Of a DNA stretch of 64,000 nt, positions 5,748-63,508 are shown in pieces. This stretch comes from a phage. The notes under the pieces were generated by a model, which had not been told where the DNA came from, made no database searches, and saw nothing but the letters and a program-made list of their open reading frames with translations. The DNA is taken from assembly GCA_025284135.1 (NCBI GenBank), contig GCA_025284135.1_3646.1. One strand, given 5' to 3'. Made by a program: the position numbers and the translations under genes. Numbering within the stretch: position 1 is the first letter of the stretch; each line of letters begins with the position of its first letter.

Positions 5748-5767
5748 GACATTAACGGGGGAAATAA

Positions 5768-6154: not shown

Positions 6155-6205
6155 TAAGCCCTAAATTGTTCGGGAAAATATTTAAGTTTTACTTTGGAGA
6201 AATAA

Positions 6206-7216
6206 ATGATTACTCGTAAAGATGAATTTGGCATTGTCGATTTAGGTGCTACTCTGGACCTTGTTCCGCGCCAATTCCGACTGATCACCGGTATGGATCT
6301 GTTCGAAACCCGTCTCGGCACCTCAACAATTGCTCAGATCGAGCGTGTTGATGAAGTTGTAACCGACATTCCGGCACGCCGTCGTGGTGGTGAACGTAAC
6401 TATGTTGGTAGTGAACGTGCTCAGGTTAAAAACCTGAACATCCCGTTCTTCCCTCTGGACAAAGGCATCACTGCCGCAGATGTTCAGAACTTCCGTCGTT
6501 ACTTCACTCCTGATGCTCCGAAAACTGTTCAGGACGTAGTAACCCGCGTTGTTCGTCGTATCCGTGTTTCTCATGAAGCACTGCGTGAGAAAGCTCTGTT
6601 CCAGGCTATTCTGGGTAAATCCTATGCACCTGGTGACGCTACCTGCCAGTATGATTACTACACTCTGTGGGGTGTGTCTCAGAAATCTGTTGAGATCGAC
6701 CCTGCAAAAGCAGATCAGGATCCTATGGAGGTTCTGGAAGAAGCTCGTCTGCACATCGCACTGCAAGCTGGCGATAATGCAGCTGGCTATCGCATCGTAG
6801 CCCTGTGCTCACCAGAGTTCTTCAGTGCTATTACCCATCACCCGCTGGTAGAACTGGCATACACCTATTACGGCTCTGCTCAGGAACCTCTGCGTCGCCG
6901 TCTGGGTGCGGGTGGTCAAGACAGCGTATACCGTGTGTTTGAGCATAAAGGTATCACCTTTATCGAAGATATCTCTGGCAATATTCCGAAGAAAGAAGCT
7001 CGCATTCTGCCTATGGGTATTGATCAGATGTTCCAGCTGCACTTTGCTCCAGCAGATGATGTTAACGAAGCAAATACCCCAGCTCAGGAACTGTACATGT
7101 GGTATAAACACTCTGCATACCTGCGTGAAGAGAAGATTGAATCTGAAACTTCCATGCTGGCAGTTAACACCCGTCCAGAGCTGGTTGTTAAAGTAACTCT
7201 GAAAAACGGTGGCTAA
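6206..7216 (+). CDS. major capsid protein (lambda gpE-like family, putative)
   Basis: 336 aa; segment patterns reminiscent of phage major capsid protein E (e.g. HEALREKALFQAILGKSY vs lambda EELAIAQVEEMQAVSAVLKGKY); strongly host-optimised codon usage (CTG, CGT, GGT, CCG); followed by a perfect 10-bp terminator hairpin. Confidence 0.8.
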   Translation: MITRKDEFGIVDLGATLDLVPRQFRLITGMDLFETRLGTSTIAQIERVDEVVTDIPARRRGGERNYVGSERAQVKNLNIPFFPLDKGITAADVQNFRRYFTPDAPKTVQDVVTRVVRRIRVSHEALREKALFQAILGKSYAPGDATCQYDYYTLWGVSQKSVEIDPAKADQDPMEVLEEARLHIALQAGDNAAGYRIVALCSPEFFSAITHHPLVELAYTYYGSAQEPLRRRLGAGGQDSVYRVFEHKGITFIEDISGNIPKKEARILPMGIDQMFQLHFAPADDVNEANTPAQELYMWYKHSAYLREEKIESETSMLAVNTRPELVVKVTLKNGG

Positions 7217-7240
7217 TCACTGATGTGATTCATCCCATAT

Positions 7241-7270
7241 GGGGAGGGGGTTCTCCCCCTCCCCTTTTTA
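7241..7270 (+). terminator. intrinsic terminator
   Basis: Perfect 10-bp stem GGGGAGGGGG-TTCT-CCCCCTCCCC followed by TTTTT. Confidence 0.8.
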
Positions 7271-7297
7271 CTTATTAGGGTTTAACAGGAGTGTCCC

Positions 7298-8143
7298 GTG
7301 AAGCGAACCGTCTACCCAGTCGAGTATGATCCTCTATTAAGAGTTTTCAACAATCAGTTAAGTTTTTATCAATTTTTAGCACAATATAACCCAGAAATCA
7401 ATGTTGGTTTATCAGCCCTGCTGCCGCCAACAGAATTCGTTATTGGCAGTGTGCACTATCCATGCAGAACGATTGTAGACTTCTTCCAGAAGATTGCAAA
7501 ACACACAGGCCTGCCAATTGATACTGGTATTTCAACTATCCGTATGGGTGTTATTCTTCTGTTCTTCACAGAGAACCTTGATGAAAGCACTTTAACACTG
7601 CAAAGTGGGGATGTCAATATCACACTCACCCCGTCAGTGTTTAAAGAGGTAGATGCGGCTTTCCAAGTTTCCGTGGCAGAGGGCCATCTATGGGACCCTG
7701 TAGGGATGCCTAAAAAGGTGACCATAAACGATGAGCAATGCAACGTTGTTTATGAAGAAGATACCCAAACTTTCACCATTGAGTGGCCTAAGAAACGTTC
7801 TCAGGTTGTAAATCTTGGGCTGGTCTCTACGATAGCTCCACCGCCTCAACCAGAGCCGGAGCCGCCTGTAGGTCCTACTGAACCTGGTGGTGGTGAAGAA
7901 TCCCAAGGTCCGACTGTACCGGAGGGAGGCACTGAGCAGGATCCTGAACAGGCACAAGAATCAAGATCTTCTCGCAGTGATGTTGATGCCCTACTACAGC
8001 AGGCCGCAGCTCTTAACAACGAAGATGACAAAAGTGGTTCAAAAGATGCACTCCAAACCTTCGCCAAAGAGCACGGTGTTACCTTAAGTAAGGCAAAAAC
8101 TTTCCAAAATATGATGAAAGATTTTGAGGCTGCACTGGCATAA
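7298..8143 (+). CDS. hypothetical structural protein (head/neck region)
   Basis: 281 aa; GTG start with AGGAG SD; Pro/Glu-rich linker (PPPQPEPEPPVGPTEPGGGEE); position between capsid and tail genes. Confidence 0.35.
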   Translation: MKRTVYPVEYDPLLRVFNNQLSFYQFLAQYNPEINVGLSALLPPTEFVIGSVHYPCRTIVDFFQKIAKHTGLPIDTGISTIRMGVILLFFTENLDESTLTLQSGDVNITLTPSVFKEVDAAFQVSVAEGHLWDPVGMPKKVTINDEQCNVVYEEDTQTFTIEWPKKRSQVVNLGLVSTIAPPPQPEPEPPVGPTEPGGGEESQGPTVPEGGTEQDPEQAQESRSSRSDVDALLQQAAALNNEDDKSGSKDALQTFAKEHGVTLSKAKTFQNMMKDFEAALA

Positions 8144-8152
8144 TTTTGTTAA

Positions 8153-8187
8153 GGCCCCTTCCAAATTAGGAATGGGGCTTTATTTTT
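8153..8187 (+). terminator. intrinsic terminator
   Basis: GCCCCTTCC...GGAATGGGGC hairpin followed by T-rich run TTTATTTTTA. Confidence 0.55.
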
Positions 8188-8202
8188 ACGAGGTATTTTC
8201 AA

Positions 8203-8823
8203 ATGGCATGGTATGAAGATGAAGAGATTATCCCGTCCCCGCCTAACCATGATGGTGCAGTAGATACCCCAGAAGAACCACCAAAAGAAGATCCTGTACC
8301 TCCGGAACCTGATCCAGACCAACCTCTTATTAATATTATGAGGTTGTTGCTTGGCAATGTTGATGAGGAAACCCTCCCTGACGAGGTAATTAAAACATTC
8401 CTTGACATGGAGAAGTTGAAACTAAATTATCCGGCAGATCCTGATAAGCTGCCTCTGCTTAAGTACAATGTGCTTGTGCAGCTTGTGCGGTGGCTGATGA
8501 TGCAGGAAGTGTCCAGCGGTAATGCAAGTATAACTTCCCGTCTGGAAAAAATAGGTGATGAGACCATAGAGATTCGTGGTGGATCTTCCTACGCCCAATG
8601 GAAAGATTTCCTTGATTGGCTGCTGGCACACCCAGACTATGTAGATTCTGAGTTAGATGCTTACAGCAGAATGATTATCATTGGTGGTGTTCGTGTAGAC
8701 GAAGGAATTCGGGTTAAATTTAATGAAAACAGCAACGGACCGTTCGATGTCCAGGGGATTACACCTATCAGTGGTCTAAATAACCAACCTCCTCGCCACC
8801 CAAGACGCAAACGCAGTTTTTAA
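8203..8823 (+). CDS. hypothetical protein (putative neck/head-tail joining)
   Basis: 206 aa; acidic Pro-rich N-terminus; positional inference only. Confidence 0.3.
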   Translation: MAWYEDEEIIPSPPNHDGAVDTPEEPPKEDPVPPEPDPDQPLINIMRLLLGNVDEETLPDEVIKTFLDMEKLKLNYPADPDKLPLLKYNVLVQLVRWLMMQEVSSGNASITSRLEKIGDETIEIRGGSSYAQWKDFLDWLLAHPDYVDSELDAYSRMIIIGGVRVDEGIRVKFNENSNGPFDVQGITPISGLNNQPPRHPRRKRSF

Positions 8824-8829
8824 AAATTG

Positions 8830-8858
8830 TTGCTTTTGATGTATCTTTGTGGTAAAAT
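8830..8858 (+). promoter_or_regulatory. sigma70-type promoter, extended -10 (TTGCTT-N17-TGgTAAAAT)
   Basis: Shares the GGTAAAATAC -10 motif with promoters at 12352, 26507, 32324. Confidence 0.4.
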
Positions 8859-8876
8859 ACATTAGTGAGGGATATA

Positions 8877-9335
8877 ATGCTAAAGGTTAAATGTCAAACA
8901 AGGTTCAACCTAAAGCGTTTAGATCGCTTCTACAAAGAACTTGTGAGACTTGAAAGTAAAACAATAACCTACGGCTTTTATGACGAACCTCACCCGTCAG
9001 GCTTAAATATGGCAACATTGGCAGCCATTCACAACTTCGGTTGGAACGGGCTGCCTGTTCGCAATTTCATGGAGACAGCCTTTGCATTTCACAGCACTCA
9101 ACTACAGACCTTGACAGAAAAATTGTTGAGAGCTATGGCTAGAGGATCAAGTGCAGAGGCTATTCTTAAGCAGATGGGGGACACAGGGGCCAAAGCTATC
9201 CAGTTTGTTATTGAGGCTGGGCAGTTTAGTAATCCTACTGTTAGCGAGCAGTGGGCACAAGAGAAAGGCTTCAACGAGGCTATGCGGCATTACGATGTGC
9301 TGCTTGAATCTGCAACCTTTAAAATCGGACAGTAA
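8877..9335 (+). CDS. hypothetical protein (putative neck/head completion)
   Basis: Track ORF starts at GTG 8865; ATG 8877 with GAGG SD preferred; positional inference only. Confidence 0.3.
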   Translation: MLKVKCQTRFNLKRLDRFYKELVRLESKTITYGFYDEPHPSGLNMATLAAIHNFGWNGLPVRNFMETAFAFHSTQLQTLTEKLLRAMARGSSAEAILKQMGDTGAKAIQFVIEAGQFSNPTVSEQWAQEKGFNEAMRHYDVLLESATFKIGQ

Positions 9336-9350
9336 AAATAAGGGGGTTGA

Positions 9351-9776
9351 GTGGCAGCAGGTTATAAGCTGATAGGAAAGAACAGACTAATACCTCGTAA
9401 AACATTCAAAGGTCGCCACAGAGTGTATAACAAAACAGTTGGTGGCCCTTTTGCCAACGAGGGGTTAGAACTTGAGTATGAAGAGTTTGATGTCTTAGAG
9501 TGTGTTGTGCAGCCGTTGACAGGAAGGGCGGCTAAAGATTACTCCTCTCAAATAAACCCTGAAGGTGACAGACAGTACGAGGCTTTTACAGTTTACTCCT
9601 CAACCAAGTTGTATAGTCCGGATGAAGGAACATACGCAATGGCTGATCAAATTCAACTTCCTGACATCCGTGGTGACTTGAAATGGTTTACCGTTTTAAA
9701 ATGCGATGCATATGTTACCTCTGGTGGTGGGAGATATAGATTTTTTGTGGTAGAAGAGCCTGAAGGAGAAAACTAA
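9351..9776 (+). CDS. hypothetical protein (putative neck/tail completion)
   Basis: 141 aa; GTG start with AGGGGG SD; positional inference. Confidence 0.3.
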   Translation: MAAGYKLIGKNRLIPRKTFKGRHRVYNKTVGGPFANEGLELEYEEFDVLECVVQPLTGRAAKDYSSQINPEGDRQYEAFTVYSSTKLYSPDEGTYAMADQIQLPDIRGDLKWFTVLKCDAYVTSGGGRYRFFVVEEPEGEN

Positions 9777-51717: not shown

Positions 51718-53199
51718 TTACTTAGCGTACTCGATTAATTCCACAGTTTTCCCAAAGCTCGGGATATAATTTTTATTATACCCTTCGGTGAGAACCCACA
51801 AAGTATCGTACTTTTTCCACTTGTTGTCAACAGCCTTTTGTTCAAAGTTATGCTCAAAGTATAGGTCGGTCAGGACGATGACATCTTTTGCATTCGGTAT
51901 GTTGGCATCCAAATACTCGAACACGCAAGCAGCTGTTGTGCCCCATGTTGAGTGGACCTCATAGTTGATCATCTCGTCTATGTTGCCGCGAGTATATACT
52001 TTAACCTCTCCGACTTCAGTTGACCAACAGAACATTGTAACCTTAAACTCTTTATACAGGTTGCACAATCCGGTGATTTCATTGAACATTTTCTTTAAAG
52101 TTCTTTGAGAGATCGAGCCAGAAACGTCTAAAGCCACCACAATATCTATAGTGTTTTCCGGATTACGACCCGGAACAATAACGTGTTGGTTCTTGTTTAT
52201 AGCTCCAACTTTTCGCATTGTGCTGGTCAAAGACCCAGATCGGCGACCAGGTTTTCTGTAGGTCAGTTCGGCCTTTCGTTTAGACAACATGCGTTGCTTG
52301 ATGATGTCTATATAATTGATTACAGGCTTACCTCTGTTCTTGACAAACTCACGAACCGCCTCAGGGCAACGACCTCCGGAAGCTTGCATTGCTGCCTCCA
52401 GCATGTCACCAGAGTCCTGCATGGCCTGATCTTTATCAGATTGGCTGATTACAGGTTGTGGCTGATCATACCCCATAGCCTTTCCAAGATCATCACTAGT
52501 GCCACCGTTCCCACTCATGTGATCATCGGTTTGTCGCTTATCACCTTGAGAGTTCTCACCTTTACCGTTCTTACTTTTACCGTTATTTTGATCTCTTTGC
52601 TTATCAAGAACTGCATAAACGTTCTCAGCAATCCATCCATGAAACTTCATGTCGCAGTAGCAGCTGGCTAAGAAGCCAAAAGGCTTACCTTTTACGAACG
52701 TAGTGCTTTTCCCTTTTGGGAAGAAAACACAAGGAGGCTTGCTAAAGTCAACCACAAGGCCTGTGTTGATGACGTGATCACAAGCAATGTTGAACAGTTC
52801 CGGTTCAAAGCTTTTACCACGGACCAGGTGATCACAGATAATATGTCCCACCTCATGTGACAGAAGAAAGGCCACCTCTTTCACAGATTTGGGGGAATAG
52901 AAAACCTCAGCCATCTCAAACTGCCCGTCAGTTAGAGAAGCCTTAAGAATAGCCTTGCGTTCATCAGCCAACCCCATAATGAACTCAGGACTGTAATAGA
53001 TGCGTTTATGGTCGGTTGCCATGGTGGAGCACCATGTGTGGTTTTCTACGAACTGCAACCCTGACAGTAGCGTGCCATAAAACGGCAGCTTTTCAAGAAG
53101 ATACATACGTGCAGCTTGCAACATTCTCAGGGCATCATCTTTCTGTGAGGCAATGATTTCTGAACTTCTGCTATCCATTAAAACTCCAGAAGGGGCCAT
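51718..53199 (-). CDS. putative zinc metallopeptidase domain + von Willebrand factor A (vWA) domain protein (DUF2201-like)
   Basis: 493 aa; HExxH motif in LLSHEVGHIICDH with downstream ACDHVINTGL; C-terminal vWA-like MIDAS motif DxSGS in VVALDVSGSIS; more likely start is the second in-frame ATG at 53178 (GGAG SD) because the first ATG sits inside a GC hairpin. Confidence 0.65.
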   Translation of the reverse strand: MAPSGVLMDSRSSEIIASQKDDALRMLQAARMYLLEKLPFYGTLLSGLQFVENHTWCSTMATDHKRIYYSPEFIMGLADERKAILKASLTDGQFEMAEVFYSPKSVKEVAFLLSHEVGHIICDHLVRGKSFEPELFNIACDHVINTGLVVDFSKPPCVFFPKGKSTTFVKGKPFGFLASCYCDMKFHGWIAENVYAVLDKQRDQNNGKSKNGKGENSQGDKRQTDDHMSGNGGTSDDLGKAMGYDQPQPVISQSDKDQAMQDSGDMLEAAMQASGGRCPEAVREFVKNRGKPVINYIDIIKQRMLSKRKAELTYRKPGRRSGSLTSTMRKVGAINKNQHVIVPGRNPENTIDIVVALDVSGSISQRTLKKMFNEITGLCNLYKEFKVTMFCWSTEVGEVKVYTRGNIDEMINYEVHSTWGTTAACVFEYLDANIPNAKDVIVLTDLYFEHNFEQKAVDNKWKKYDTLWVLTEGYNKNYIPSFGKTVELIEYAK

Positions 53200-53211
53200 T
53201 GGCCCCTGTCA

Positions 53212-54255
53212 TTATTTAACGTGTTTGAAAATACCTGCCAACTCGGTCATTGTCATGCGGGTGGTCTTCATAAGATCTGTCATAGCTTTCTCCATAATTG
53301 GAGATACTACCATAAAGTTTCCTTTAGTGAAACCTTTATTCCAGTCGGTCACCAACAGTGGTTTAAGTCCAGCTCCGAGACGTTCACCAGTTAAAGCACA
53401 GCATTTGCGAATATACGAACTCTTAAATTGGCTGAACGACAGATCAACTTTCATACCTGCATCGTAGAACGTTTGACAATAGAAAGTGTAAGCCTTAGCA
53501 ATCTCAACATCATCAGGCAGTGCAGGAACTTCTTCTGCAATACCCTCTTCGACCTCCTGAGGATCTTTTTCCTCTTCAGAGTTCTGTTCTTCAATTTCTT
53601 CTGTCACAGTCTCGTTTACGATGTCTGAAATGTGTTTGTTGGCTGCACGATCAGCCATGAAATTTTTAAAGTCCTGCATTGGTGACATATCTTCCTCCTC
53701 TTCGTCAAATAGTGCTAGTTTATCTTCTTCTGTCCCGTATTGCAAGATGAAATCTTCAAAAGTATAATCACCTTTCAATTTCTCCATACGCTCTTCGCTC
53801 AGGTGGAGCATCATCTGCTGGACAATTTTTCGATCAGTTTTGTCTTTTATCAAGATTGCAGTCTTTTTATCTACCAGACAGTCCTTCAGAGCGTTGCACC
53901 TCAATCCCACCACACAACAATTATCAATTGAGTAAGGACCTTCATCATCTATCCGCTCCAGAGATGGATAGAAAGGATTTCCCAGCCCGTTTTCATCTGT
54001 GTGCATGTCAAAAGGTATAAGGGTGTAATCGCACACTCCATCTCCTAAAAGTTTTTTACCAAATAGGAGGTATTCTTCCCATGACAGGTTGAACTCTATA
54101 TCCCGTTTCCGTGCATTATTCTGTTTGCGTCTATATTTTTTGAGCAGGCGCTCTAACTCTTCTGGTGTATAATATTTTTCAAGATTCATGAGTTGTCTCT
54201 TGTGCTCTGTAGGTGAAGAAATCTTATCAAGTGCCTCAACAGATGTCAACCTCAA
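53212..54255 (-). CDS. HNH-like endonuclease candidate with acidic central linker
   Basis: 347 aa; segment SLERIDDEGPYSIDNCCVVGLRCNALKD resembles the R/H-I-D...N...CN-x-x-K core of HNH/His-Me finger nucleases; track start is TTG, so the true start is uncertain. Confidence 0.3.
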   Translation of the reverse strand: MRLTSVEALDKISSPTEHKRQLMNLEKYYTPEELERLLKKYRRKQNNARKRDIEFNLSWEEYLLFGKKLLGDGVCDYTLIPFDMHTDENGLGNPFYPSLERIDDEGPYSIDNCCVVGLRCNALKDCLVDKKTAILIKDKTDRKIVQQMMLHLSEERMEKLKGDYTFEDFILQYGTEEDKLALFDEEEEDMSPMQDFKNFMADRAANKHISDIVNETVTEEIEEQNSEEEKDPQEVEEGIAEEVPALPDDVEIAKAYTFYCQTFYDAGMKVDLSFSQFKSSYIRKCCALTGERLGAGLKPLLVTDWNKGFTKGNFMVVSPIMEKAMTDLMKTTRMTMTELAGIFKHVK

Positions 54256-54262
54256 AAACGTG

Positions 54263-54291
54263 TTGACTTTACCCTAAATCCACGATATAGT
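54263..54291 (+). promoter_or_regulatory. sigma70-type promoter (TTGACT-N17-TATAGT) in divergent intergenic region
   Basis: Hexamers with 17-nt spacer; lies inside the track-predicted 5' extension of ORF 54290, supporting the downstream ATG 54332 as the start. Confidence 0.5.
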
Positions 54292-54331
54292 GCACCCATT
54301 CGAAAGAAAACGAACACAGGAGTACTTAATC

Positions 54332-55243
54332 ATGGCAAATCTTAACAGCTTTAGCACTCGGTGGAAACAAGATATCACAACCAATCTCTCAGCAGGCGAT
54401 ATCCTTTCTGCAATTTACGAGGCTTTGGATGATAAAGCTACTTCAAAAGCGGTTTGTACCAACCCACTAATTCCTGTAGTGATGAAGGTTATTGAGCGTA
54501 GATTGGTATCTGGGTCTGATAAGTGGACATATTTAGATAATGAAGGACACACCTATTCCAATGGGTACGTCGATATAAAAGTAGAATACGCGGTATCATA
54601 CCGCCGGAGCGGTTCTGTAACTTTCAACTTCTCTGGAGGTTTTCGATCTCTGGCTACCTCACCTTTTGTTTCCTCAGAGGAGAAGTATGAGCTTCCATTT
54701 CTTTGGATGATGGCTAACGCGACAGGAAAAACCCCCGTTAGCATCCGAGTAAAATACAACTACAACGGATCTAGTAAGATCTATGCCGAGAGTGTCTCAG
54801 CAAGTTTTTATTTTGTGATGGGGGATGGAATCCTCAAACATATAAAGATGTGCGATATGCATGATGTTATAAATGAAGTGACTGATAAGAATGTTCTGGT
54901 GAAGGATCTCAACAATTTTTATACACCCGGAGACTATTACGTCAGCCGTCCACTGTGCATCTTTAATGCCGCACACCCTCTAGGTGAGTATTTGATCGCC
55001 AATAGCGATATTGCCAATAACCGCTTCGAGGTAGCAAGAGTACAGAATGAGGTATTGACATCTTGCAAGAGCGGTGATAAGTTTACCGAAGAAGAGATGG
55101 GTGTTTTAGAAATGATGGGATATAAGTGTAGCCTTTGGGTAGATGAGGTGTTTAATGATTGCATCTATGGACAGGATATTTACCCATTAAAGAAGTATAC
55201 TGATTCCAGTTTAATATTTGACTATGATGAAGTCATGTGGTAG
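54332..55243 (+). CDS. hypothetical protein (303 aa)
   Basis: ATG 54332 with CAGGAG SD; first gene of plus-strand operon; no motif recognised. Confidence 0.45.
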   Translation: MANLNSFSTRWKQDITTNLSAGDILSAIYEALDDKATSKAVCTNPLIPVVMKVIERRLVSGSDKWTYLDNEGHTYSNGYVDIKVEYAVSYRRSGSVTFNFSGGFRSLATSPFVSSEEKYELPFLWMMANATGKTPVSIRVKYNYNGSSKIYAESVSASFYFVMGDGILKHIKMCDMHDVINEVTDKNVLVKDLNNFYTPGDYYVSRPLCIFNAAHPLGEYLIANSDIANNRFEVARVQNEVLTSCKSGDKFTEEEMGVLEMMGYKCSLWVDEVFNDCIYGQDIYPLKKYTDSSLIFDYDEVMW

Positions 55244-55496
55244 TGTATATTATGTTGGTGAGAATGTTCAGGCAGATAGTGTGTGGAAATCCATTAAGTC
55301 CACCACCGATGATGCCTTTCTGAGCGGGTTATGCTTTCCCAGCCCAGGGGACACTCTCCCTTACCCTGGAGATTTTGTTGTCAACAAGATGGACGGTTAT
55401 ACCGTGTGCCTGATGGTTGAAAAAATCTTTTTAGACACTAGACACAATCACCGTCTTGTGTTAAAATTTCAAGAATGTAAAATGACAATTGCCTAA
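55218..55496 (+). CDS. hypothetical protein (92 aa)
   Basis: Track ORF with TTG start overlapping previous gene; real start probably an internal ATG. Confidence 0.3.
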   Translation: MTMMKSCGSVYYVGENVQADSVWKSIKSTTDDAFLSGLCFPSPGDTLPYPGDFVVNKMDGYTVCLMVEKIFLDTRHNHRLVLKFQECKMTIA

Positions 55497-55509
55497 GGAG
55501 ACCTTGCCG

Positions 55510-55866
55510 ATGTCTAAAGTTACTTATCGTGCAGCTATTTACTGCAATGAACACCCAATCTATAATGATGGTCACTGCCTTTTTAAAGAAAATCAATTGG
55601 GCTGTATTGTCCTCCCTGATGAAGGTGAAGGTTATCTGATTGCGTTGACAGGGTTTGAACCTGAAGCTCTGGAAGCCAATCTTGACTACCTGGTAGAAGA
55701 GGGTGCTGCAGACCTGGTTGCCAATGGCCTATCCGTAAGCCTTGATGAAGTGGAGCGCTTCATGGGCAATTACCGTGTAGTGCGTGAGTTTACTATCGAG
55801 GTGGAAACTCCAGAGTGGGGTAGCACTGAAACTAATGCCGAAGAAAAAGAAGAGGAGGTAGAATAA
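55510..55866 (+). CDS. strongly acidic small protein (DNA-mimic/anti-restriction candidate)
   Basis: ATG 55510 with AAGGAG SD (track gives TTG 55489); about 27 Asp/Glu vs about 7 Lys/Arg; acidic tail EEKEEEVE. Confidence 0.45.
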   Translation: MSKVTYRAAIYCNEHPIYNDGHCLFKENQLGCIVLPDEGEGYLIALTGFEPEALEANLDYLVEEGAADLVANGLSVSLDEVERFMGNYRVVREFTIEVETPEWGSTETNAEEKEEEVE

Positions 55867-56123
55867 TGAAAGTGCAGATCTTGACTAATGCCGAGAAGAT
55901 GTTTATTGAAGATACACCTTTTGAAGCTGGTGAGCTACAGTTCGTTTATTTTGTTGACTTAGATAAGGTGTTCCCTGCACTGAATCTGGGTCTGGATGAA
56001 GTTCCTCATAAGGTTTTGTGCCAAGTTGTTCGTGCCTTAGCGGCAGAGGGGGAGTTCCACACCCTTCAAGATATCCAGACCTACGGGTATCTTGAACTAC
56101 AACGAGAAGAAGAGGTGGACTGA
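55866..56123 (+). CDS. acidic small protein (85 aa)
   Basis: Start overlaps previous stop (TAATGA); net charge about -11. Confidence 0.45.
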   Translation: MKVQILTNAEKMFIEDTPFEAGELQFVYFVDLDKVFPALNLGLDEVPHKVLCQVVRALAAEGEFHTLQDIQTYGYLELQREEEVD

Positions 56124-56125
56124 TA

Positions 56126-56506
56126 ATGGCTCAGTGGAAGACAACAGTTGACCTTCATGATCAGTGGTTAGGACGCATCACTGAAGACGGGAAGTTAGTT
56201 GAGTGGGACAATAAGCATGTTAGCGAGTTGGCAAGTATTGTGGCTGGCAAGTTACGATCCAAGTTCCCTGAACAACTGGATCCTGATAGTTCAAAGTTCG
56301 ATCCTGAGTTGGAGGATGTTGTATACTACTTCGACACCGTGGATGACTACGATGCGTGGTTTGCAGCACGGGAGCTTTACCCACAAGGATCTGCTATGCG
56401 CCAGATGGAAGAAGATTATCCTCCGTGCGAGCAATTCAATAGTGCAATGACTTGCCTCTACGATTGGGCAGATAAGAACCTTGTCTGGATTCGGACTGCA
56501 TTTTAG
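56126..56506 (+). CDS. acidic small protein (126 aa)
   Basis: Asp-rich (DTVDDYDAW); net charge about -13. Confidence 0.45.
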   Translation: MAQWKTTVDLHDQWLGRITEDGKLVEWDNKHVSELASIVAGKLRSKFPEQLDPDSSKFDPELEDVVYYFDTVDDYDAWFAARELYPQGSAMRQMEEDYPPCEQFNSAMTCLYDWADKNLVWIRTAF

Positions 56507-56550
56507 TGGGCAGGAATGGCGGCAAGGATGCTGCTTAAGGAGTAGTAGAG

Positions 56551-56820
56551 ATGTTATACCAGCAATATGAACTTCGTGCAGAAAAAGAGTTAAATTTTGA
56601 CAAAGATATTCACAGATATTATTATGGGAAAGTTAGAGGGCAAGCAAGAAAGTGTACTCCAACACTCTTTTATGCCAGCAGACGACTAGCGCCAGAAGAG
56701 GCAACAGCAGAAAGGGTTGCGTACAACTGGAGAGTCACGTATGATATTGACAGATCCGATGTGATATCTGTTTTGGAAAACTTTGAAAACACTTACACAC
56801 AAGTAGAGGACTTTTACTAA
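56551..56820 (+). CDS. hypothetical protein (89 aa)
   Basis: ORF immediately upstream of and overlapping the AAA+ ATPase start. Confidence 0.4.
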   Translation: MLYQQYELRAEKELNFDKDIHRYYYGKVRGQARKCTPTLFYASRRLAPEEATAERVAYNWRVTYDIDRSDVISVLENFENTYTQVEDFY

Positions 56821-58004
56821 TGTCAAGAAACGTATTTGAAAGTGGTCAAATCACTGTCCGTGAGTTGCCAGCTATCATTCAGTTTGCCCAGCGTCATAAC
56901 CGATCTGTCCTGATTTTAGGACCAATGGGCGTGGGAAAGAGCCGGGTGATGAAGCAGATCGCAGACAATATGTTCGGTGAGCGAGATGACAACTTGGTTG
57001 ACGTGCGGTTGTCAGATAAAGATCCTGCCGACTTATCTGGGCTACCTATCCCTGTAGAAGCGGATGGAACTACACGTACAGTGTTTGCAATTCCAGAATT
57101 TTGGCCTGCGGATCCTGACTGGAGCGGAATTATCTTTCTGGATGAGCTCACTCATGCAGATAACTACCTGCAAAAGGTTGCAATGCAAATTATGCTCGAC
57201 CACAAGTGCGGTACCTATGCATTCCCTAAAGGTTCTGTTTTTGTGGCTGCTGGTAACCGTTCTACAGATGGTGCGGTTCTTTCGGCGCTCGAAGCCCCTC
57301 TGGCTAACCGTTTTATCATTGTAGAAGTTACAAGCAATGCAGAGGTGTTTATTGAGGACTACGCATTCCTTAATGGGGTGCATTCCTCTGTAATTGGATA
57401 TCTGAAAAGAGTTCCATCAGCTATCGATAATTATGAGGCTATGGCTGAGATTAATTGTCCATCTTTTGCCACACCGCGATCTTGGGTTGCTGCATCTGAT
57501 ATCTTGCACGATTTTGACAGCGGCATTATTTCTGACGCTATGGCCCGTGTTCTTCTGCAAGGTGCTATTGGTCACACTGCAGCGGTAGAGATCTGGACTT
57601 ACCACACCAAGAAACGCAACTTACCGGAAATCGGTCGGATTATGGCAGGAGGTTGCAAAGAATATGTAGGTCCTAAACAGCCAGACATCTTGTGGATTCT
57701 TGGATCTGAAGGTTGTATCGCTATTCGTAATATGATGGAAAATGCAAGTATCTCCGACGAAGATCTTGTTAGCTGTGTGGCAAACTTCCTCGATTTCCTT
57801 TGGGGAAACTTCAAGGATGAGAACCGAGATTTTGTATTCTCAGTCTTTATGGCGATGATGAAACCTAATGCCTTAGGAAATGCCTTGCTTATCGGTAAAG
57901 GTCGTGACAAGATTGTTGCTCAGCTGATCAAAGCATACCCAAACCTGATGAAGATTGTAAAAGAGTTTGGTGAAGAGTTTAGCGCCATTTTGGCTAAAGC
58001 TTAA
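56820..58004 (+). CDS. AAA+ ATPase, MoxR/AAA_5-like
   Basis: 394 aa; Walker A GPMGVGKS, Walker B IIFLDEL, sensor-like AAGNRSTDG; domain order typical of MoxR/CbbQ/CobS-type ATPases. Confidence 0.75.
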   Translation: MSRNVFESGQITVRELPAIIQFAQRHNRSVLILGPMGVGKSRVMKQIADNMFGERDDNLVDVRLSDKDPADLSGLPIPVEADGTTRTVFAIPEFWPADPDWSGIIFLDELTHADNYLQKVAMQIMLDHKCGTYAFPKGSVFVAAGNRSTDGAVLSALEAPLANRFIIVEVTSNAEVFIEDYAFLNGVHSSVIGYLKRVPSAIDNYEAMAEINCPSFATPRSWVAASDILHDFDSGIISDAMARVLLQGAIGHTAAVEIWTYHTKKRNLPEIGRIMAGGCKEYVGPKQPDILWILGSEGCIAIRNMMENASISDEDLVSCVANFLDFLWGNFKDENRDFVFSVFMAMMKPNALGNALLIGKGRDKIVAQLIKAYPNLMKIVKEFGEEFSAILAKA

Positions 58005-58013
58005 GGAGGTTGT

Positions 58014-58394
58014 ATGGCTAAAGTAGGTAAGCGGGGAAACTACCTAGTGGTATTGACCGAGGAGCCCGAGAAGGAGTACGAATGCAGCTCCACTTGCGTG
58101 ATCGATATCCGAGAAAAAGATGTAGATGAAATCTGGTTTGAAATATTGGACGCTTGCGATAGCAGTGATTATTTCTTCATCTATGTCAACGATAAGGCTG
58201 GGTTCTTCCATGACGACGGAGAGTTGCCGTATGAAATCTATGAACTTGTAGAGGCTTGCCATCGTGGAGATGCGGAGTTGTTTGGCTTACGGCTGAAAAG
58301 CGGTAAATTCTTCTATCAAGATGAGTGCATGAATCTTCATAACTTTGTAGAGGGAACTTGCAACGATGGAGAGATTCTGGCACACTACGATTAA
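58014..58394 (+). CDS. strongly acidic small protein (126 aa)
   Basis: About 29 Asp/Glu vs about 11 basic residues; followed by terminator. Confidence 0.45.
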   Translation: MAKVGKRGNYLVVLTEEPEKEYECSSTCVIDIREKDVDEIWFEILDACDSSDYFFIYVNDKAGFFHDDGELPYEIYELVEACHRGDAELFGLRLKSGKFFYQDECMNLHNFVEGTCNDGEILAHYD

Positions 58395-58404
58395 TTTCTA
58401 AGAC

Positions 58405-58433
58405 CACCCCGCTTCGGCGGGGATTTTCTATTT
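58405..58433 (+). terminator. intrinsic terminator (UUCG tetraloop)
   Basis: CCCCGC-TTCG-GCGGGG followed by ATTTTCTATTT; same hairpin core as at 32290. Confidence 0.75.
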
Positions 58434-58442
58434 GGAGTTATT

Positions 58443-58943
58443 GTGAAAATTAAGATCTTTGCTATTATTTTGAGCGCATTTTTATCGCTGCCTGTTGTTG
58501 CAGCACCAAAACAAAAAGTATACCATACTTGCAAGCCATCAGATACTAAGGAAAACATTCTAGCATGCAATATCTACAGGGAAGCTAGAGGAGATGGCAC
58601 GATGGGTATGCTGGCATCTGGGTTTGCCACCCTAAACAGAAAATCTCATCCCAAATACCCAGACACTATAAGAAAGATTGTCTACCAACCTAATCAGTTT
58701 TCGTGGACAAACTACGGCAAAACTTTTAAGGTGACAGAAAAAGATTCATGGGATCACGCTAAAAGTCTTGCAAAGATGCTTCTAAAGGTCTATAATAACA
58801 ACCATGTTGCATACATGGCTATGGATATAACAGGTGGAGCAACACACTACCATACAACCAAAGTACGACCGAAATGGGCAAAAAAGATGCAGAGGACAGC
58901 TCAATTCGGGAGCCATATCTACTACAAGGAGCGCAATAAATGA
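58443..58943 (+). CDS. secreted cell wall hydrolase, SleB/CwlJ-type (Hydrolase_2-like); endolysin candidate
   Basis: 166 aa; GTG start with GGAG SD; N-terminal signal peptide (MKIKIFAIILSAFLSLPVVAAP); motifs ACNIYREARGDG, GMLASGFATLNR, YPDTIRKIVYQPNQFSW match the conserved blocks of SleB-family hydrolases. Confidence 0.7.
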   Translation: MKIKIFAIILSAFLSLPVVAAPKQKVYHTCKPSDTKENILACNIYREARGDGTMGMLASGFATLNRKSHPKYPDTIRKIVYQPNQFSWTNYGKTFKVTEKDSWDHAKSLAKMLLKVYNNNHVAYMAMDITGGATHYHTTKVRPKWAKKMQRTAQFGSHIYYKERNK

Positions 58944-60922
58944 TCGTAAACAGTAATGAAACTAAAGCGGTACTAACCGGGAATATGGAGGTCACCAGGG
59001 GCTCAATTTCTCTGAACAAAGAGACTTTTGGGCTAATCATTAAAGGGATTTACGAAGATAAGGTGCTGGCAAGCTGCCGTGAACCAATCTTCAACGCCGT
59101 GGACTCCCATGTTGAGTCTGGACGGGGTGATGTACCGATCATTATTCACTCTCCTACAGACCTTGAACCGTACTTCTTTGTGCAGGACGTCGGATTGGGC
59201 ATGTCAGAAGAGATGGTCCGCAACACTTTCATGAACCTCGGGGAGTCAACCAAGCGCAACAGCAACGCTCTGGTAGGTAATAAAGGTGTTGGTTCAAAGG
59301 CTCCGTTCAGCATGGTGGACACTTTCGATGTGATCAGTGTGCATAATGGTGTTGAAAGCACATATCTATTGTTCTTGGATCAGGGTATCCCAAACGTTAC
59401 CAAGATTCGCGAGCGGAAGACTGAAGAGCACAACGGGGTAAAAGTTCAGTTCCATGTTAAGAAAGAGCATGTCCTGAAATATCGCACTGCTATTGCATCG
59501 TGCTTACGCTATGCGAAGTTTCCGTTCACCGTCACCGATCCCATGACCAGTAAGATGTTAGAAGGTGACAAGGTTGAGGCACAGTATCATTACGAGAAGG
59601 ATGGCTGGAAAATGACCATCCTGAAAGGTTATACCAGTTCTGATGAGAGCCGTGTTGTGATGGGTCACCAACCTTACCGCTCTAAGTTCCTGGAGACATT
59701 GACCGATTACCCTGCAATCTGCGTGGAAATTCCTATTGGGGATTGCAATATTAACCCTGGGCGTGAATGGACCATAGAGGGCCATGACGACGGTGGATTC
59801 CAGGATCGCCTGGAGGCCTTTGTCAAAGAAGGTATACGTCTTCGCGGGGCAGAAGTTGTTGCAGAACTGGAGACGGCAAAAACCTCCGCAGAAGCACGTG
59901 AAATGATGAAGAATAGTGGAGTGTTCGGGCACATCTTCGGTAAGAATTTTATGTATGACCGCTGGGAAGAAACAGGGCTAGGGAATTTGGGGGACTGCGA
60001 GATCTTCGCTGGCGGCTTAAATAAAGGCCGCATAGGTTACGCCTGCTACGGAAAGGTAGAATTCTTACGGGGAGTTTATTTAGTATTTAACGACGGAGAC
60101 GGCAAATATAACCGGAATAAGTGTAACTACTTAAGCGAGATCACCGGACGCAACGTTTTCTATTGCCGTAACACGGATCTGGTGAAAGAGTTTAAAGAGG
60201 CGGCACACCATCCGTTTTTTGCAGATACGGTCAAATTGTTATCTGAGCTTCCACGCCGACCTACGAAGAAAGGTGAAACCAAAACCCGTTACGAACCAGG
60301 CTATTGGGTTAAAAAACTTGAGAAGGATGGTTACTTCCGGCGTGAGCGTATTACTAAGGCAGAGTTCAGGAAGATTAAGTACTGCATTCCCTACGAGGGG
60401 GATATCCAACGTGGAAGTTGTTGGCTGGGACAGCTGAGTAACATCTACCAGCAAAATTATGACCGTGTGCGTGCGGCACTCCAGATTCCTGAAGGGGAAG
60501 ATCTGTACCTGGTATCGGAATCTCGTCTGCTTTGGACTGATCCTGATTGCCAGTATGTTACAGAGAAGAATGTGGAACATTTGTTGAAAGAGGATGCTTG
60601 GAAATTCTTACTGACTCGCGCAGCAAATGAAACTTCATATGACAGCCTGTATAGACAATTAGGGAAAATTATTCCCATGCAAGATTTTGGAAATTATCGG
60701 CCACATTTCCACAAGTGGGAAGGTAACACCGCGTGGAAGCACAGTGAGCTAAATCATCGTGCCAAAATCTTAATCGCCAACCGAGTTAAATGCGGGAAGG
60801 CCTATATTGCAAGATTGGAAAAGAAATACCCACTTTTGAAGCATGTAGGCTTGAAATATTGGGACACTCCTGCTATGATTGAATACCGTGAACTGATCGA
60901 TACAAAGAATAACATCAAATAA
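58940..60922 (+). CDS. rIIA: rIIA-like protein (GHKL/HATPase-like N-terminal domain)
   Basis: 660 aa; N-terminal segments REPIFNAVDSH, FFVQDVGLGMS, GNKGVGSKAPFSMVDTFDVISVH parallel T4 rIIA ([45 protein letters not shown]); followed by rIIB-like gene. Confidence 0.85.
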   Translation: MIVNSNETKAVLTGNMEVTRGSISLNKETFGLIIKGIYEDKVLASCREPIFNAVDSHVESGRGDVPIIIHSPTDLEPYFFVQDVGLGMSEEMVRNTFMNLGESTKRNSNALVGNKGVGSKAPFSMVDTFDVISVHNGVESTYLLFLDQGIPNVTKIRERKTEEHNGVKVQFHVKKEHVLKYRTAIASCLRYAKFPFTVTDPMTSKMLEGDKVEAQYHYEKDGWKMTILKGYTSSDESRVVMGHQPYRSKFLETLTDYPAICVEIPIGDCNINPGREWTIEGHDDGGFQDRLEAFVKEGIRLRGAEVVAELETAKTSAEAREMMKNSGVFGHIFGKNFMYDRWEETGLGNLGDCEIFAGGLNKGRIGYACYGKVEFLRGVYLVFNDGDGKYNRNKCNYLSEITGRNVFYCRNTDLVKEFKEAAHHPFFADTVKLLSELPRRPTKKGETKTRYEPGYWVKKLEKDGYFRRERITKAEFRKIKYCIPYEGDIQRGSCWLGQLSNIYQQNYDRVRAALQIPEGEDLYLVSESRLLWTDPDCQYVTEKNVEHLLKEDAWKFLLTRAANETSYDSLYRQLGKIIPMQDFGNYRPHFHKWEGNTAWKHSELNHRAKILIANRVKCGKAYIARLEKKYPLLKHVGLKYWDTPAMIEYRELIDTKNNIK

Positions 60923-60932
60923 GGAGACCAAG

Positions 60933-62138
60933 ATGATTTTCATCTACGAACATTTCAAAACCCGTAAAGAAGCACGAGACCGCCGTGCAGAACTTGAGAA
61001 GAAGGGTTTCACATGTGCCATTGAGAAAGGCGACACAACCTGGACACTGGCAGTTGGTGCCCCAGAGTTGTTCGATCCTGACCGTGACAGCGTCTGCTAC
61101 ACCCGTGAAGATTTTGAAACCCGCGAAGAGGCCCGTTTATTTCGATACGGTCTGGAAGATAACGGTAAGTACGCCATGATCTTAGATTTAGGCGAAGGGT
61201 CCGTTAAACGTTGGGGCGTGGTATACCCACTGTGTGTTGTTCATGGTGTGGGGTTCACTGGGGTAGCAATCAAGTCAGAAGAACCTTTAGTAGAAGTCAA
61301 AGATCCGGTGCTGGAGGTGGTGAGCAGTGTATCTCAGCAACAGACTCGAAGTATTGAGCCTTTGGTAGTTATTTGTGGGGAACTCCTCCAGATCACCTGC
61401 AACGAAGGCATTTTTGAAATTCGCCGCAGCGAAAGTGAGGAAGTTTACCAGAAAGTCTTCGACCATATCTCTGTCCAGAAATATGACGAGGCAATTGGTG
61501 AAATCCTTGTCTGGTTGGAACGCAAGAATGAGTTCACTACACTTGCAGACAACCTGATCATGAAAGATGGTAAGCTCTACTACTACGGTGTAGAGATGCG
61601 ATCCACCATTGCAAAGAAAATTGAGAAAGATTATGCAGACGGAACACTAGATGACCGCTATGTGAAATTCCTAGTTCGCCTGCTACGCAATCCTTCTGCA
61701 AAATCTGTAAACATGCTCTACGATTTTATGCAGGCCAACGATATCCAGGTTGCAGAAGATGGTCGAATCATTTGCTACAAAGGGGTTCAGTTTAACGGCA
61801 GCAAGTGGGTGGATTGGCACAGTGGTAAAGTTCCACAATACCAGGGTGCTTTTGTATCCATGCCTCGTAACTTTGTAGAGGATGATCCTGAAGCTGCGTG
61901 CTCCTATGGCTTACACTGCGCCAGCAAAGAGTATGCAAAGAGCTACGGCACTGTAATGACTGTTATGGTTGATCCTGCAGATGTGGTCAGTGTGCCATAC
62001 CAACACAATAGCGCTAAGTGCCGTGCATGCCGCTATGAGATTGTGGTAGCTCCGGAAGCACGCAAAGACGGAGACCCTATTGAATATGTAGTTGATCGTG
62101 ACGGTAACACTATCGACATTCTTTACGAGGAGGCGTAA
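60933..62138 (+). CDS. rIIB: rIIB-like protein
   Basis: 401 aa; C-terminal half parallels T4 rIIB (YDFMQANDIQVAEDGRIICYK vs FDFLVANDIEITEDGYFYAWK; GLHCASKEY...VMVDPADVVSVPYQHNSAKCRACRYEIVV vs GLHVCSKSY...VKVHPRDVVSIPIDYNDAKMRTCQYEVV). Confidence 0.85.
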   Translation: MIFIYEHFKTRKEARDRRAELEKKGFTCAIEKGDTTWTLAVGAPELFDPDRDSVCYTREDFETREEARLFRYGLEDNGKYAMILDLGEGSVKRWGVVYPLCVVHGVGFTGVAIKSEEPLVEVKDPVLEVVSSVSQQQTRSIEPLVVICGELLQITCNEGIFEIRRSESEEVYQKVFDHISVQKYDEAIGEILVWLERKNEFTTLADNLIMKDGKLYYYGVEMRSTIAKKIEKDYADGTLDDRYVKFLVRLLRNPSAKSVNMLYDFMQANDIQVAEDGRIICYKGVQFNGSKWVDWHSGKVPQYQGAFVSMPRNFVEDDPEAACSYGLHCASKEYAKSYGTVMTVMVDPADVVSVPYQHNSAKCRACRYEIVVAPEARKDGDPIEYVVDRDGNTIDILYEEA

Positions 62139-63508
62139 TGGAAAAAGGGCAGTATGATGTAGGCACAGATGCTGCCCTCGTTGCAATCATGAGCGGTGAG
62201 AATGTCTTCGTTTCAGGACCTGCAGGTTGTGGGAAGACGTATCTCATCAACATGATCCAGTCAATGTATGGAGACTCTTGCATAACGGTTGCCCCGACAG
62301 GGGTAGCCGCTTTAAACGTTAATGGAGCAACAGCACACCGAACCTTCGATCTTGCAGCAGGTGTGAGCATGGAGTCAGACTGGACCGCAATAAGGGCAAA
62401 AACAGCAAAGCCTTTGAAAAGCAAGGCATTTACCATCCTAATTATCGATGAAATCTCTATGATCCGTGCTGATAAGTTTATAGAGATGGATAGGAAACTC
62501 CGCTTCCTTCGAAAAAATGACAAACCTTTCGGAGGCATACAGGTCATATTGTTTGGCGATTTTTACCAGGCACCTCCTGTTGTCTCTTCTATGGAGAAGG
62601 AAGCCTACTTCAACTTCTACCATACGGACCTGTGTTGCTATACCGAATCTTGGAAAGAGCTTGACCTCCACAACATAGCCCTAGTAGATCAGTTCCGACA
62701 GGAGTCTATTCGATTTGCCACAATGCTCAACTGTGTTCGTGAGGGTCGTCGCATAAAAGAGGTTGTAGCAGAACTTAATGCTCGCTGTTACAAAGGCGGC
62801 GTACCAACAGATGCTCTCACAATTTGCGCCACCAACAAACAAGCAGAGGAAGTAAACAGAAGGTTCTATGATGCCATCAACGCCCCAGAGAAGGTATACA
62901 CTGGTGAAATGAAGGGTAAGTTTCCCTCCACCCTGCCAGTTGAGCAGGAGATGAAGTTGAAAATTGGTATGAAAGTTATGATAACCGCCAACGATGTTGA
63001 CCCGACGCACAAGGTACCTTATTATGTTAACGGAACACGTGCCACAATTGTTAAATTTAAGAACAAGGCGGTGGTGGTAGAGCTTGAAGATGGAACACAG
63101 GTTGACATAGAGCAGAGGTTGTGGGAGAATAACGAGTATAAGCCATCTCAGAGATACAACATTGCAGAAAGGAAGATGGAGAAGTTTATAGAGAGGGTAG
63201 TGATTGGGTCATACAAGCAACTTCCTCTGAAATCTGGGTACGCCGTAACATCTCATAAAAGTCAAGGGCTTACGCTAGATTGTTACAACCTAGACCTTGG
63301 AAAGAACGGAGCTTTCTCTCCTGGGATGACGTATGTCGCTTTGAGTAGAGTTAAGACAATACAAGGAATAAACTTGTTGCGTCCACTAAGAGAAGTTGAC
63401 ATTATTGTTGACCCGCGAGTCGTAGAGTTTTACAATACAACATTCCCTGACTTAGACAAAATTGTCAGGAAAGATTTTGAAACCAGAGCAGAAGAGGGGG
63501 ACGTATGA
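62138..63508 (+). CDS. SF1B DNA helicase, PIF1/Dda/RecD-like
   Basis: 456 aa; Walker A GPAGCGKT, motif Ia APTGVAA, Walker B ILIIDEISM, GGIQVILFGDFYQAPPV, AVTSHKSQGLT, YVALSRV. Confidence 0.85.
   Translation: MEKGQYDVGTDAALVAIMSGENVFVSGPAGCGKTYLINMIQSMYGDSCITVAPTGVAALNVNGATAHRTFDLAAGVSMESDWTAIRAKTAKPLKSKAFTILIIDEISMIRADKFIEMDRKLRFLRKNDKPFGGIQVILFGDFYQAPPVVSSMEKEAYFNFYHTDLCCYTESWKELDLHNIALVDQFRQESIRFATMLNCVREGRRIKEVVAELNARCYKGGVPTDALTICATNKQAEEVNRRFYDAINAPEKVYTGEMKGKFPSTLPVEQEMKLKIGMKVMITANDVDPTHKVPYYVNGTRATIVKFKNKAVVVELEDGTQVDIEQRLWENNEYKPSQRYNIAERKMEKFIERVVIGSYKQLPLKSGYAVTSHKSQGLTLDCYNLDLGKNGAFSPGMTYVALSRVKTIQGINLLRPLREVDIIVDPRVVEFYNTTFPDLDKIVRKDFETRAEEGDV

Follow-up and report, generated by a model that had tools for sequence, protein, structure and literature searches.

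We examined two genes on a 64,000-nucleotide stretch of phage DNA (NCBI GenBank assembly GCA_025284135.1, contig GCA_025284135.1_3646.1), called the window in what follows. One gene is predicted to encode a MoxR-type AAA+ ATPase and the other a protein with a zincin-type metallopeptidase domain followed by a von Willebrand factor A (vWA) domain that carries a metal ion-dependent adhesion site (MIDAS). The window belongs to an rV5-like Vequintavirus. A 7.5-kb region of it is 96-98% identical in DNA sequence to more than 100 rV5-like Escherichia phages, among them rV5 itself, vB_EcoM_YN3 (98.3%) and the BASEL phages AlexBoehm and MaxBurger. Escherichia phage MaxBurger is Bas54 by its locus tags; over the 7.5-kb region it shares 96.1% DNA identity and an identical gene order with the window. 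Both genes are already labelled in GenBank, one as 'MoxR ATPase' and the other as 'putative metallopeptidase' or 'VWA-like domain containing protein'. The two genes and their motifs are as follows, with phage N4 as the more distant reference.

56820..58004, plus strand: MoxR-type AAA+ ATPase, 394 aa; ortholog of the rV5 'MoxR ATPase' and of bas54_0063, more distantly related to N4 gp24
56919..56942, plus strand: Walker A motif GPMGVGKS, aa 34-41; G37, G39, K40 and S41 invariant
57129..57149, plus strand: Walker B motif IIFLDEL, aa 104-110; D108 and E109 invariant
51718..53199, minus strand: zincin-peptidase and vWA protein, 493 aa; DUF2201_N and DUF2201; N4 gp25-like; ortholog of bas54_0055
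52828..52857, minus strand: putative zinc-binding/catalytic motif HEVGHIICDH; H115, E116, H119 and H124 invariant in 53 homologues
52114..52128, minus strand: MIDAS motif DVSGS, aa 358-362; D358, S360 and S362 invariant
51937..51939 and 51865..51867, minus strand: remaining MIDAS residues T421 and D445, both invariant

Neither open reading frame (ORF) contains an internal stop. They lie on opposite strands with 3,620 bases between their starts, in agreement with an earlier reading made from the sequence only, which had placed both ORFs at these positions about 3.6 kb apart. The Walker A, Walker B, HExxH and DxSGS motifs that it had reported were also all located where it had put them.

Domains and invariant residues of the two proteins

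The ATPase on its own was poorly recognized by family models. All Pfam AAA models scored below their cut-offs (AAA_5 gave 16.9 bits against 22), no NCBIfam family was matched, PADLOC defence-system models gave P-loop-level matches only (E >= 6e-4), and a single-sequence search of the PDB returned only P-loop-level matches to ClpB and ClpC. Homologues at E ~1e-44 (31-35% identity over ~85% of the protein) bear AAA_3 and AAA_5, matches to which were found in 22 of the 51 aligned ATPase sequences, and five aligned homologues match the Pfam bpMoxR model. A profile of the family matched the AAA modules of midasin (E = 5.9e-10). The predicted fold is of the MoxR type, with an AAA+ core, a helix-2 insert and a pre-sensor-1 beta-hairpin, and the best matches of the ATPase were CbbQ and NorQ. 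On this predicted fold and these homologues, the 394-aa protein is placed with the MoxR ATPases. The description of the ATPase as AAA_5-like in the sequence-only reading is thus sound as a classification, although the score of the protein itself falls short of the AAA_5 cut-off. Ten residues are invariant across the 51 sequences (G37, G39, K40, S41, D108, E109, N146, R147, R164 and R220), and we consider N146/R147, R164 and R220 candidate sensor and arginine-finger residues. CbbQ, NorQ and midasin each operate with a MIDAS/vWA module.

The second protein was readily assigned. Pfam searches gave 99.8 bits for DUF2201_N (cut-off 23.2) and 43.7 bits for DUF2201 (cut-off 26.4), described in Pfam as a 'putative metallopeptidase domain' and a 'VWA-like domain', with the peptidase at the N-terminus and the vWA domain after it. 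These scores bear out the prediction that HExxH metallopeptidase and vWA/MIDAS domains occur in one protein. Both window proteins also match PHROG families at E = 1e-110 to 1e-123. Given these matches and the Pfam scores of the vWA protein, the two are not chance ORFs. DUF2201_N is present in 65 of 65 homologues and DUF2201 in all but one of them (P0062). Among 53 homologues with 21-82% identity to the window protein, the invariant columns are H115, E116, H119, H124, A139, D141, D358, S360, S362, G420, T421 and D445. This set spans the HExxHxxxxH zincin motif, in which HEVGH is aa 115-119 (52843-52857), and the complete MIDAS (DxSxS...T...D). The protein has a vWA fold with all of its MIDAS residues.

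An AlphaFold2 model of the peptidase-vWA protein (pLDDT 84.7) has a helical N-domain with a small beta-sheet preceding the HExxH helix, a disordered Gly/Asp/Gln-rich linker at aa 210-234, and a C-terminal alpha/beta domain. The active-site helix has weak sequence matches to Peptidase_M48 and to selecase (the minimal peptidase MJ1213); beyond these hints no structural placement of the domain among the zincins was obtained, and a single-sequence PDB search with the protein returned no match. The family is large, with 15,434 clusters at 50% identity that match the peptidase-vWA protein at E <= 1e-30, and in the literature searched we found no biochemically characterized member of the DUF2201 type.

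The family to which the peptidase-vWA protein belongs, phrog_1314, bears the name 'HNH endonuclease' both in PHROGs and across many phage records of RefSeq. We rejected this label because no HNH domain was detected and Pfam gives zincin and vWA domains; it looks like a propagated misannotation. Genes carrying it include the window gene (51718-53199, minus strand), N4 gp25 (locus L095, 2165-3307) and genes at 3971-5260 of L001 and 5023-6438 of L098. One peptidase-vWA cluster is named 'DNA repair ATPase'.

Genomic coupling of the pair and its divergent arrangement

Using the ATPase alone as bait, we fetched 80 loci of uncultured viruses from IMG/VR and scanned them with a profile of the peptidase-vWA protein. 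Nine loci that end no more than 400 nucleotides (nt) past the ATPase gene were left out as uninformative. In 69 of the remaining 71, the ATPase gene is followed on its own strand by a peptidase-vWA gene within 550 nt, with a median gap between the ORFs of 72 nt. The other two informative loci are an rV5-like split and a locus without a vWA gene in its remaining 1,067 nt. The same order, ATPase and then peptidase-vWA, is found with the genes adjacent in N4 (gp24/gp25), Atu_ph07, phAPEC6, Bacillus phage PBS1, cyanophage S-TIM5 (where the genes overlap), Thermus phage phiYS40, a Rhizobium N4-like phage, N4-like metagenomic contigs and uncultured myophage contigs. The two genes are adjacent in this order on the chromosome of Sulfurivermis fontis as well, and the cassette therefore extends beyond phages.

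In three phages the genes are apart because other genes have been inserted between them: a homing endonuclease among others in PA5oct (locus L003, 3148-5909), two small ORFs in SonariX, and, in VBP47 (4575-9600 of the record), several genes of which one encodes an HNH nuclease and another an SPFH/Band-7 protein. VBP47 had been a candidate for a genome with the ATPase only, until a scan of the whole record located its peptidase-vWA gene 5 kb downstream. No genome in the lineages sampled was found to have one gene without the other. Counts of GenBank phage records by host genus were nearly the same for the ATPase and the vWA protein (Escherichia 214 and 216, Pseudomonas 102 and 108, Pectobacterium 26 and 26, Cronobacter 17 and 17).

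In N4-like phages, gp24 and gp25 are two of 14 core genes (PMC4193335), and in N4 they are middle genes (PMC4193335, PMC2784036). Genes for dCTP deaminase, thymidylate synthase, 5'-3' exonuclease and Hsp20 recur as neighbours of the pair. No recurring third gene stood out in the neighbourhood tables examined, VMAP profiles not having been searched. The sequence-only reading had taken the two proteins as halves of an ATPase/vWA pair and had named an absence of co-occurrence in related genomes as what would speak against this. The vWA gene directly follows the ATPase gene in 69 of the 71 informative loci, in more than 10 named phage lineages and in one bacterium. We conclude that the window genes very probably form a functional MoxR/vWA pair.

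The divergent arrangement of the pair in the window is derived, probably by inversion, and is shared with Seunavirus. In UPEC06, also of the Vequintavirinae, the pair is adjacent on one strand, two genes past the strand switch, and in Certrevirus DU_PP_I only two tiny ORFs separate the two genes. Because these phages keep the common order, the split is the derived state. Seunavirus GAP31 has the same divergent split as the window, including an anti-sigma-like gene upstream of the vWA gene. A gene for a SleB-like hydrolase lies on the arm opposite the ATPase gene in UPEC06, whereas in the window it comes shortly after the ATPase gene, on the strand of that gene. This arrangement could have arisen if, in an ancestor shared by Vequintavirus and Seunavirus, the segment running from the switch through the ATPase gene was inverted once. 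One breakpoint would lie in the short spacer between the two genes, and the inversion would have put the pair on opposite arms of a divergent early/middle promoter region, with both genes kept since. The same spacer is a recurrent insertion site (PA5oct, VBP47), and the proposed inversion breakpoint of the rV5/Seunavirus group would map there too. The window ATPase and vWA proteins are 50 and 47% identical to those of GAP31, 37 and 37% to those of UPEC06 and 35 and 34% to those of Certrevirus, a near-equal divergence that is also expected from shared genome history.

The sequence-only reading had assigned the genes to divergent units. They do lie on opposite strands, on either side of a strand switch, and the GC skew changes sign at ~54 kb, between the two. 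Further features of the locus are the following.

54221..54291, both directions: divergent switch region; a 70-bp gap with back-to-back sigma70-like promoter matches (consensus matches only) and a change of GC skew
53191..53207, minus strand: 7-bp GC hairpin between the anti-sigma-like gene and the vWA gene, surrounding the first in-frame ATG of the latter
58407..58422, plus strand: putative terminator, a GC-rich hairpin and then a T-run (pattern match only), which closes the rightward unit with the ATPase gene

The two transcription units that carry the ATPase and peptidase-vWA genes appear to start at the predicted switch region, and the rightward one probably ends at the predicted terminator. 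The promoter matches at the switch are TTGACA-17-TAAGAT leftward and TTGACT-17-TATAGT rightward. The listed TTG and GTG starts of the ORFs that flank the switch overlap these matches, suggesting that the true starts are probably the downstream ATGs at ~54189 and ~54332. The hairpin (GGGGCC-AAU-GGCCCC; z-score -2.8 for the region 53165-53225) is conserved in Bas54, Bas56 and an IMG/VR relative and could be an attenuator or RNA-stability element inside the operon. The vWA gene probably starts at the ATG at 53178 (Met8, giving 486 aa). We prefer this start because a GGAG lies 7 nt upstream of it, the first ATG is in the hairpin loop, and database forms have 486 aa; the 486-aa form is used by both GenBank records and by the protein-cluster representative.

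Several neighbouring genes were noted. Upstream of the vWA gene is an ORF (53212-54255, minus strand) for a 347-aa protein annotated variously as 'anti-sigma factor', 'anti-termination protein' or 'HNH endonuclease'. This anti-sigma-like protein matches phrog_3118 and, more weakly, Srd-like, sigma70-decoy and endonuclease VII families, with no Pfam match, and its Bas54 ortholog is neutral in the transposon screens described below, both on K-12 and on CFE311. The ATPase gene is preceded by an 89-aa ORF (56551-56820, plus strand) whose stop overlaps the ATPase start codon. It is conserved in rV5-like phages, and Seunavirus GAP31 has an 80-aa ORF at the equivalent position. PHROGs labels it 'ATPase' (phrog_13164), yet it is without an ATPase motif. 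We dropped it as a candidate third component of the pair, its ortholog bas54_0062 being neutral on CFE311. A strong promoter-like site, TTGACA-17-TATTAT (11 of 12 matches), lies inside this ORF at 56597-56625, just upstream of the ATPase gene.

In rV5-like phages as in N4-like ones, rIIA-rIIB follow the ATPase gene, or the ATPase/vWA pair, a few kb further downstream on its strand (window 56820-62138; N4, locus L095, 939-11076; locus L103, 4974-10813), which may be a trace of a middle-gene module that both groups have in common. The name 'Campylobacter phage' is borne by sixteen GenBank records (for example MG065654, MG065666 and MG065658, host given as Campylobacter jejuni) that are 96-97% identical to rV5-like coliphages in this region, and their host attribution looks doubtful.

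Phenotypes in phage Bas54 and a proposed function

Data on the orthologs of both genes come from HIDEN-SEQ, a study of saturated transposon libraries of Bas54 (bioRxiv 10.1101/2025.11.20.689424). On E. coli K-12 both genes were classed 'Non-essential', with insertions at 60 of 64 TA sites in the ATPase ortholog and 81 of 86 in the vWA ortholog. When K-12 was compared with the uropathogenic strain CFE311, bas54_0063 had zero insertions (log2 fold change -7.23, q = 0) and bas54_0055 was depleted (log2 fold change -2.20, p = 0.0009, q = 0.009). The genes between them, bas54_0056 to bas54_0062, were all neutral on CFE311, including the anti-sigma-like gene and the 89-aa ORF. From clean knockouts, bas54_0063 and an unrelated small gene, bas54_0140, were both reported to be specifically required against the cloned two-gene defence system DS-28, and the bas54_0063 knockout was sensitive to DS-28 cloned in K-12 (bioRxiv 10.1101/2025.11.20.689424). 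The co-depletion of bas54_0055 with bas54_0063 is read here from the table in the preprint; bas54_0055 goes unmentioned by its authors.

Two other entries in these tables were noted. In Extended Data Table 8, the sheet 'resampling_K-12_vs_CFE303' (Data S6) repeats the command line and the numbers of the CFE311 sheet (Data S7). A 456-aa window ORF after rIIB (62138-63508, plus strand) corresponds to the Bas54 'DNA helicase' bas54_0068, which is non-essential on K-12 and strongly depleted on CFE311 (log2 fold change -6.32, q = 0); this helicase-like ORF is a candidate for another host-specific or counter-defence gene. The CRISPRi-ART paper and a second transposon preprint contained no data on the genes studied here. 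Searches of the literature on DUF2201, COG3864 and the rV5 'MoxR ATPase' found no functional study, and the nature of DS-28 was not found in the literature searched.

We favour, with moderate confidence, the reading that the window genes are a separated gp24/gp25-type cassette that acts as a counter-defence machine. By analogy with CbbQ-CbbO, NorQ-NorD and RavA-ViaA, the ATPase would assemble into a MoxR-type hexamer onto which the peptidase-vWA partner would dock. The complete MIDAS of the partner would hold a target protein by one of its acidic residues, ATP hydrolysis would drive the remodelling of this target, and the fused HExxH zincin domain would then cleave it, or else the adaptor. That the MIDAS-bearing polypeptide also has a conserved zincin site suggests that remodelling is coupled to cleavage, and the pair would in that case be a two-component analogue of an ATP-dependent protease. 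We are less confident of the proteolytic step than of the reading as a whole. In rV5-like phages the target would probably be a component, product or trigger of DS-28. A pair that acts in this way would be dispensable on E. coli K-12 and needed on the clinical strain, with the ATPase required against DS-28. Caveats to this reading are the size and setting of the bas54_0055 effect, which is ~4.6-fold and was seen as depletion on CFE311, not tied to DS-28, and the fact that the Bas54 phenotypes come from a preprint.

The alternative that survives best is that the two genes have become uncoupled in rV5-like phages. The ATPase would then act against DS-28 with another partner, such as bas54_0140, while the peptidase-vWA protein would have an independent and minor role, and the split would reflect this decoupling. 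The very unequal effect sizes on CFE311 (-7.23 and -2.20) fit this explanation, as do the presence of bas54_0140 rather than bas54_0055 beside bas54_0063 among the validated DS-28 genes and the location of the pair in different transcription units. However, both genes have been retained in two genera since the split, the two proteins have diverged to a nearly equal extent across GAP31, UPEC06 and Certrevirus, and the catalytic and MIDAS residues are still invariant. In addition, no ATPase-only genome was found in any lineage sampled, and bas54_0055 is significantly depleted on CFE311 where all of its neighbours up to the ATPase gene are neutral. We judge uncoupling to be unlikely.

Somewhat less likely still is that the pair is a general factor of the infection cycle, serving host takeover or the maturation of a phage complex for replication or nucleotide metabolism, with the DS-28 phenotype being indirect. 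This would suit a core pair of N4-like phages that is expressed among the middle genes in N4, has dCTP deaminase, thymidylate synthase, 5'-3' exonuclease and Hsp20 as repeated neighbours, and belongs to a very large family (15,434 clusters) with copies on bacterial chromosomes. On K-12, though, both genes tolerate insertions at 94% of TA sites with no fitness call, and therefore no housekeeping role is needed under standard conditions in Bas54.

A chaperone for virion or tail-fibre assembly, like p618/p892 of Acidianus two-tailed virus (ATV) and needed only for fibres used on particular hosts, is improbable. ATV is the one virus with a studied MoxR-vWA pair (cited in PMC7159879, PMC9964418), conditional essentiality on CFE311 extends to several lateral tail-fibre genes of Bas54, and the GenBank record of the PA5oct ATPase bears an 'ESI-MS/MS' note. 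Yet the ATPase knockout is sensitive to DS-28 in K-12, where those fibres are dispensable, and the operons that hold the genes are of early/middle type and set apart from the structural modules, in the window as in N4. Among the functions that the sequence-only reading had listed, counter-defence thus gains from the reported DS-28 sensitivity of the ATPase knockout and the assembly chaperone loses by the same phenotype. We give almost no credence to an auxiliary metabolic role in metal-cofactor insertion, as in the chelatase-type systems CobS/CobT and BchI/BchD, since the best matches of the ATPase are CbbQ and NorQ and not BchI, the vWA partner has a zincin domain where BchD and CobT have an AAA-like N-domain, and no cofactor-pathway gene is among the conserved neighbours.

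Related systems and significance

The closest known gene arrangement is that of gp24/gp25 in N4 and other Schitoviridae. Profiles of the window ATPase and vWA families match the N4 proteins at E = 8e-57 and 6e-82, the domain content is equal, and the context is likewise that of middle genes near nucleotide-metabolism genes and rIIA/rIIB. The N4 genes are adjacent on one strand, whereas those of the window are 3.6 kb apart on opposite strands, and identity between the proteins is ~20-27%. Compared with N4, the Vequintavirinae peptidase-vWA proteins have an additional insertion of ~40 aa ahead of the HExxH helix, and the helical domain at the C-terminus of their ATPases is longer.

CbbQ-CbbO, a Rubisco activase, and NorQ-NorD, which acts in the maturation of NO reductase, belong to the MoxR 'CGN' subfamily with vWA/MIDAS partners. 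Unlike the window protein, CbbO and NorD are without a peptidase domain, and their targets are metabolic enzymes. CbbQ and NorQ are 18-20% identical to the phage ATPase, and no such target enzyme is encoded near the window genes. The sequence-only reading had offered both MoxR/vWA and CobS/CobT as likenesses. The best matches to CbbQ and NorQ favour the first. The second would call for an ATPase nearest to BchI or CobS and a partner with an AAA-like N-domain and an acidic linker, and this was not what we found; the partner has a zincin domain instead.

Effector domains, sometimes peptidases, are fused to the vWA component in vWA-MoxR conflict systems (Kaur, Burroughs, Iyer & Aravind 2020, eLife, PMC7159879). 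These resemble the window cassette in pairing a MoxR ATPase with an effector-bearing vWA co-chaperone in a setting of biological conflict. They differ in being bacterial and ternary, with a defining third component (VMAP, FtsH or beta-propeller), whereas the window cassette appears to have two genes and is phage-encoded. The peptidases fused in those systems, mostly of trypsin or caspase type, are often inactive, in contrast to the zincin with its invariant catalytic residues. The ATV proteins p618 (MoxR) and p892 (vWA), which we liken by description, are also a virus-encoded pair with a chaperone role (cited in PMC7159879, PMC9964418), but of an archaeal virus, acting in extracellular tail development and with no peptidase domain reported. 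As for the Bas54 preprint, bas54_0063 is the direct ortholog of the window gene and provides the only experimental phenotype for the ATPase gene, whereas bas54_0055 is not treated there as its partner, and the preprint describes neither a mechanism nor what DS-28 is.

The pairing of a MoxR ATPase with a vWA/MIDAS partner is already well known as a chaperone-like type of machine, both families are in Pfam, and the genes are annotated for the rV5-like group. The literature searched contained no biochemical study of a DUF2201-type pair, no explicit identification of the rV5-like genes as a gp24/gp25 cassette that has been split, and no remark on the co-depletion of the peptidase-vWA gene with the ATPase gene in the Bas54 screen.

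The window genes represent a zincin-bearing subtype of the MoxR-vWA pair that is core in N4-like phages and present in many jumbo phages. That the pair has been kept together in evolution despite its physical separation is good evidence of mutual need. Published data from a 96% identical phage show that both genes matter in CFE311 and that overcoming a defined defence system requires the ATPase. The pair is thus a testable entry to the question of whether phages disarm bacterial immunity by AAA+-driven proteolysis. As a more tentative possibility, which we think rather unlikely as it stands, cassettes of the gp24/gp25 family may form a counter-defence machine that is broadly conserved among phages. 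Driven by ATP and guided by the MIDAS, such a protease or disassemblase would capture proteins of host immunity, or the complexes that activate them, and render them inactive; DS-28 would be the first of its targets to be identified, and the bacterial chromosomal copies would be the ancestral housekeeping version. If this broad reading is true, the cassette would be the first anti-defence system of MoxR type, and a function would be assigned to two genes of the 14-gene core of N4-like phages.

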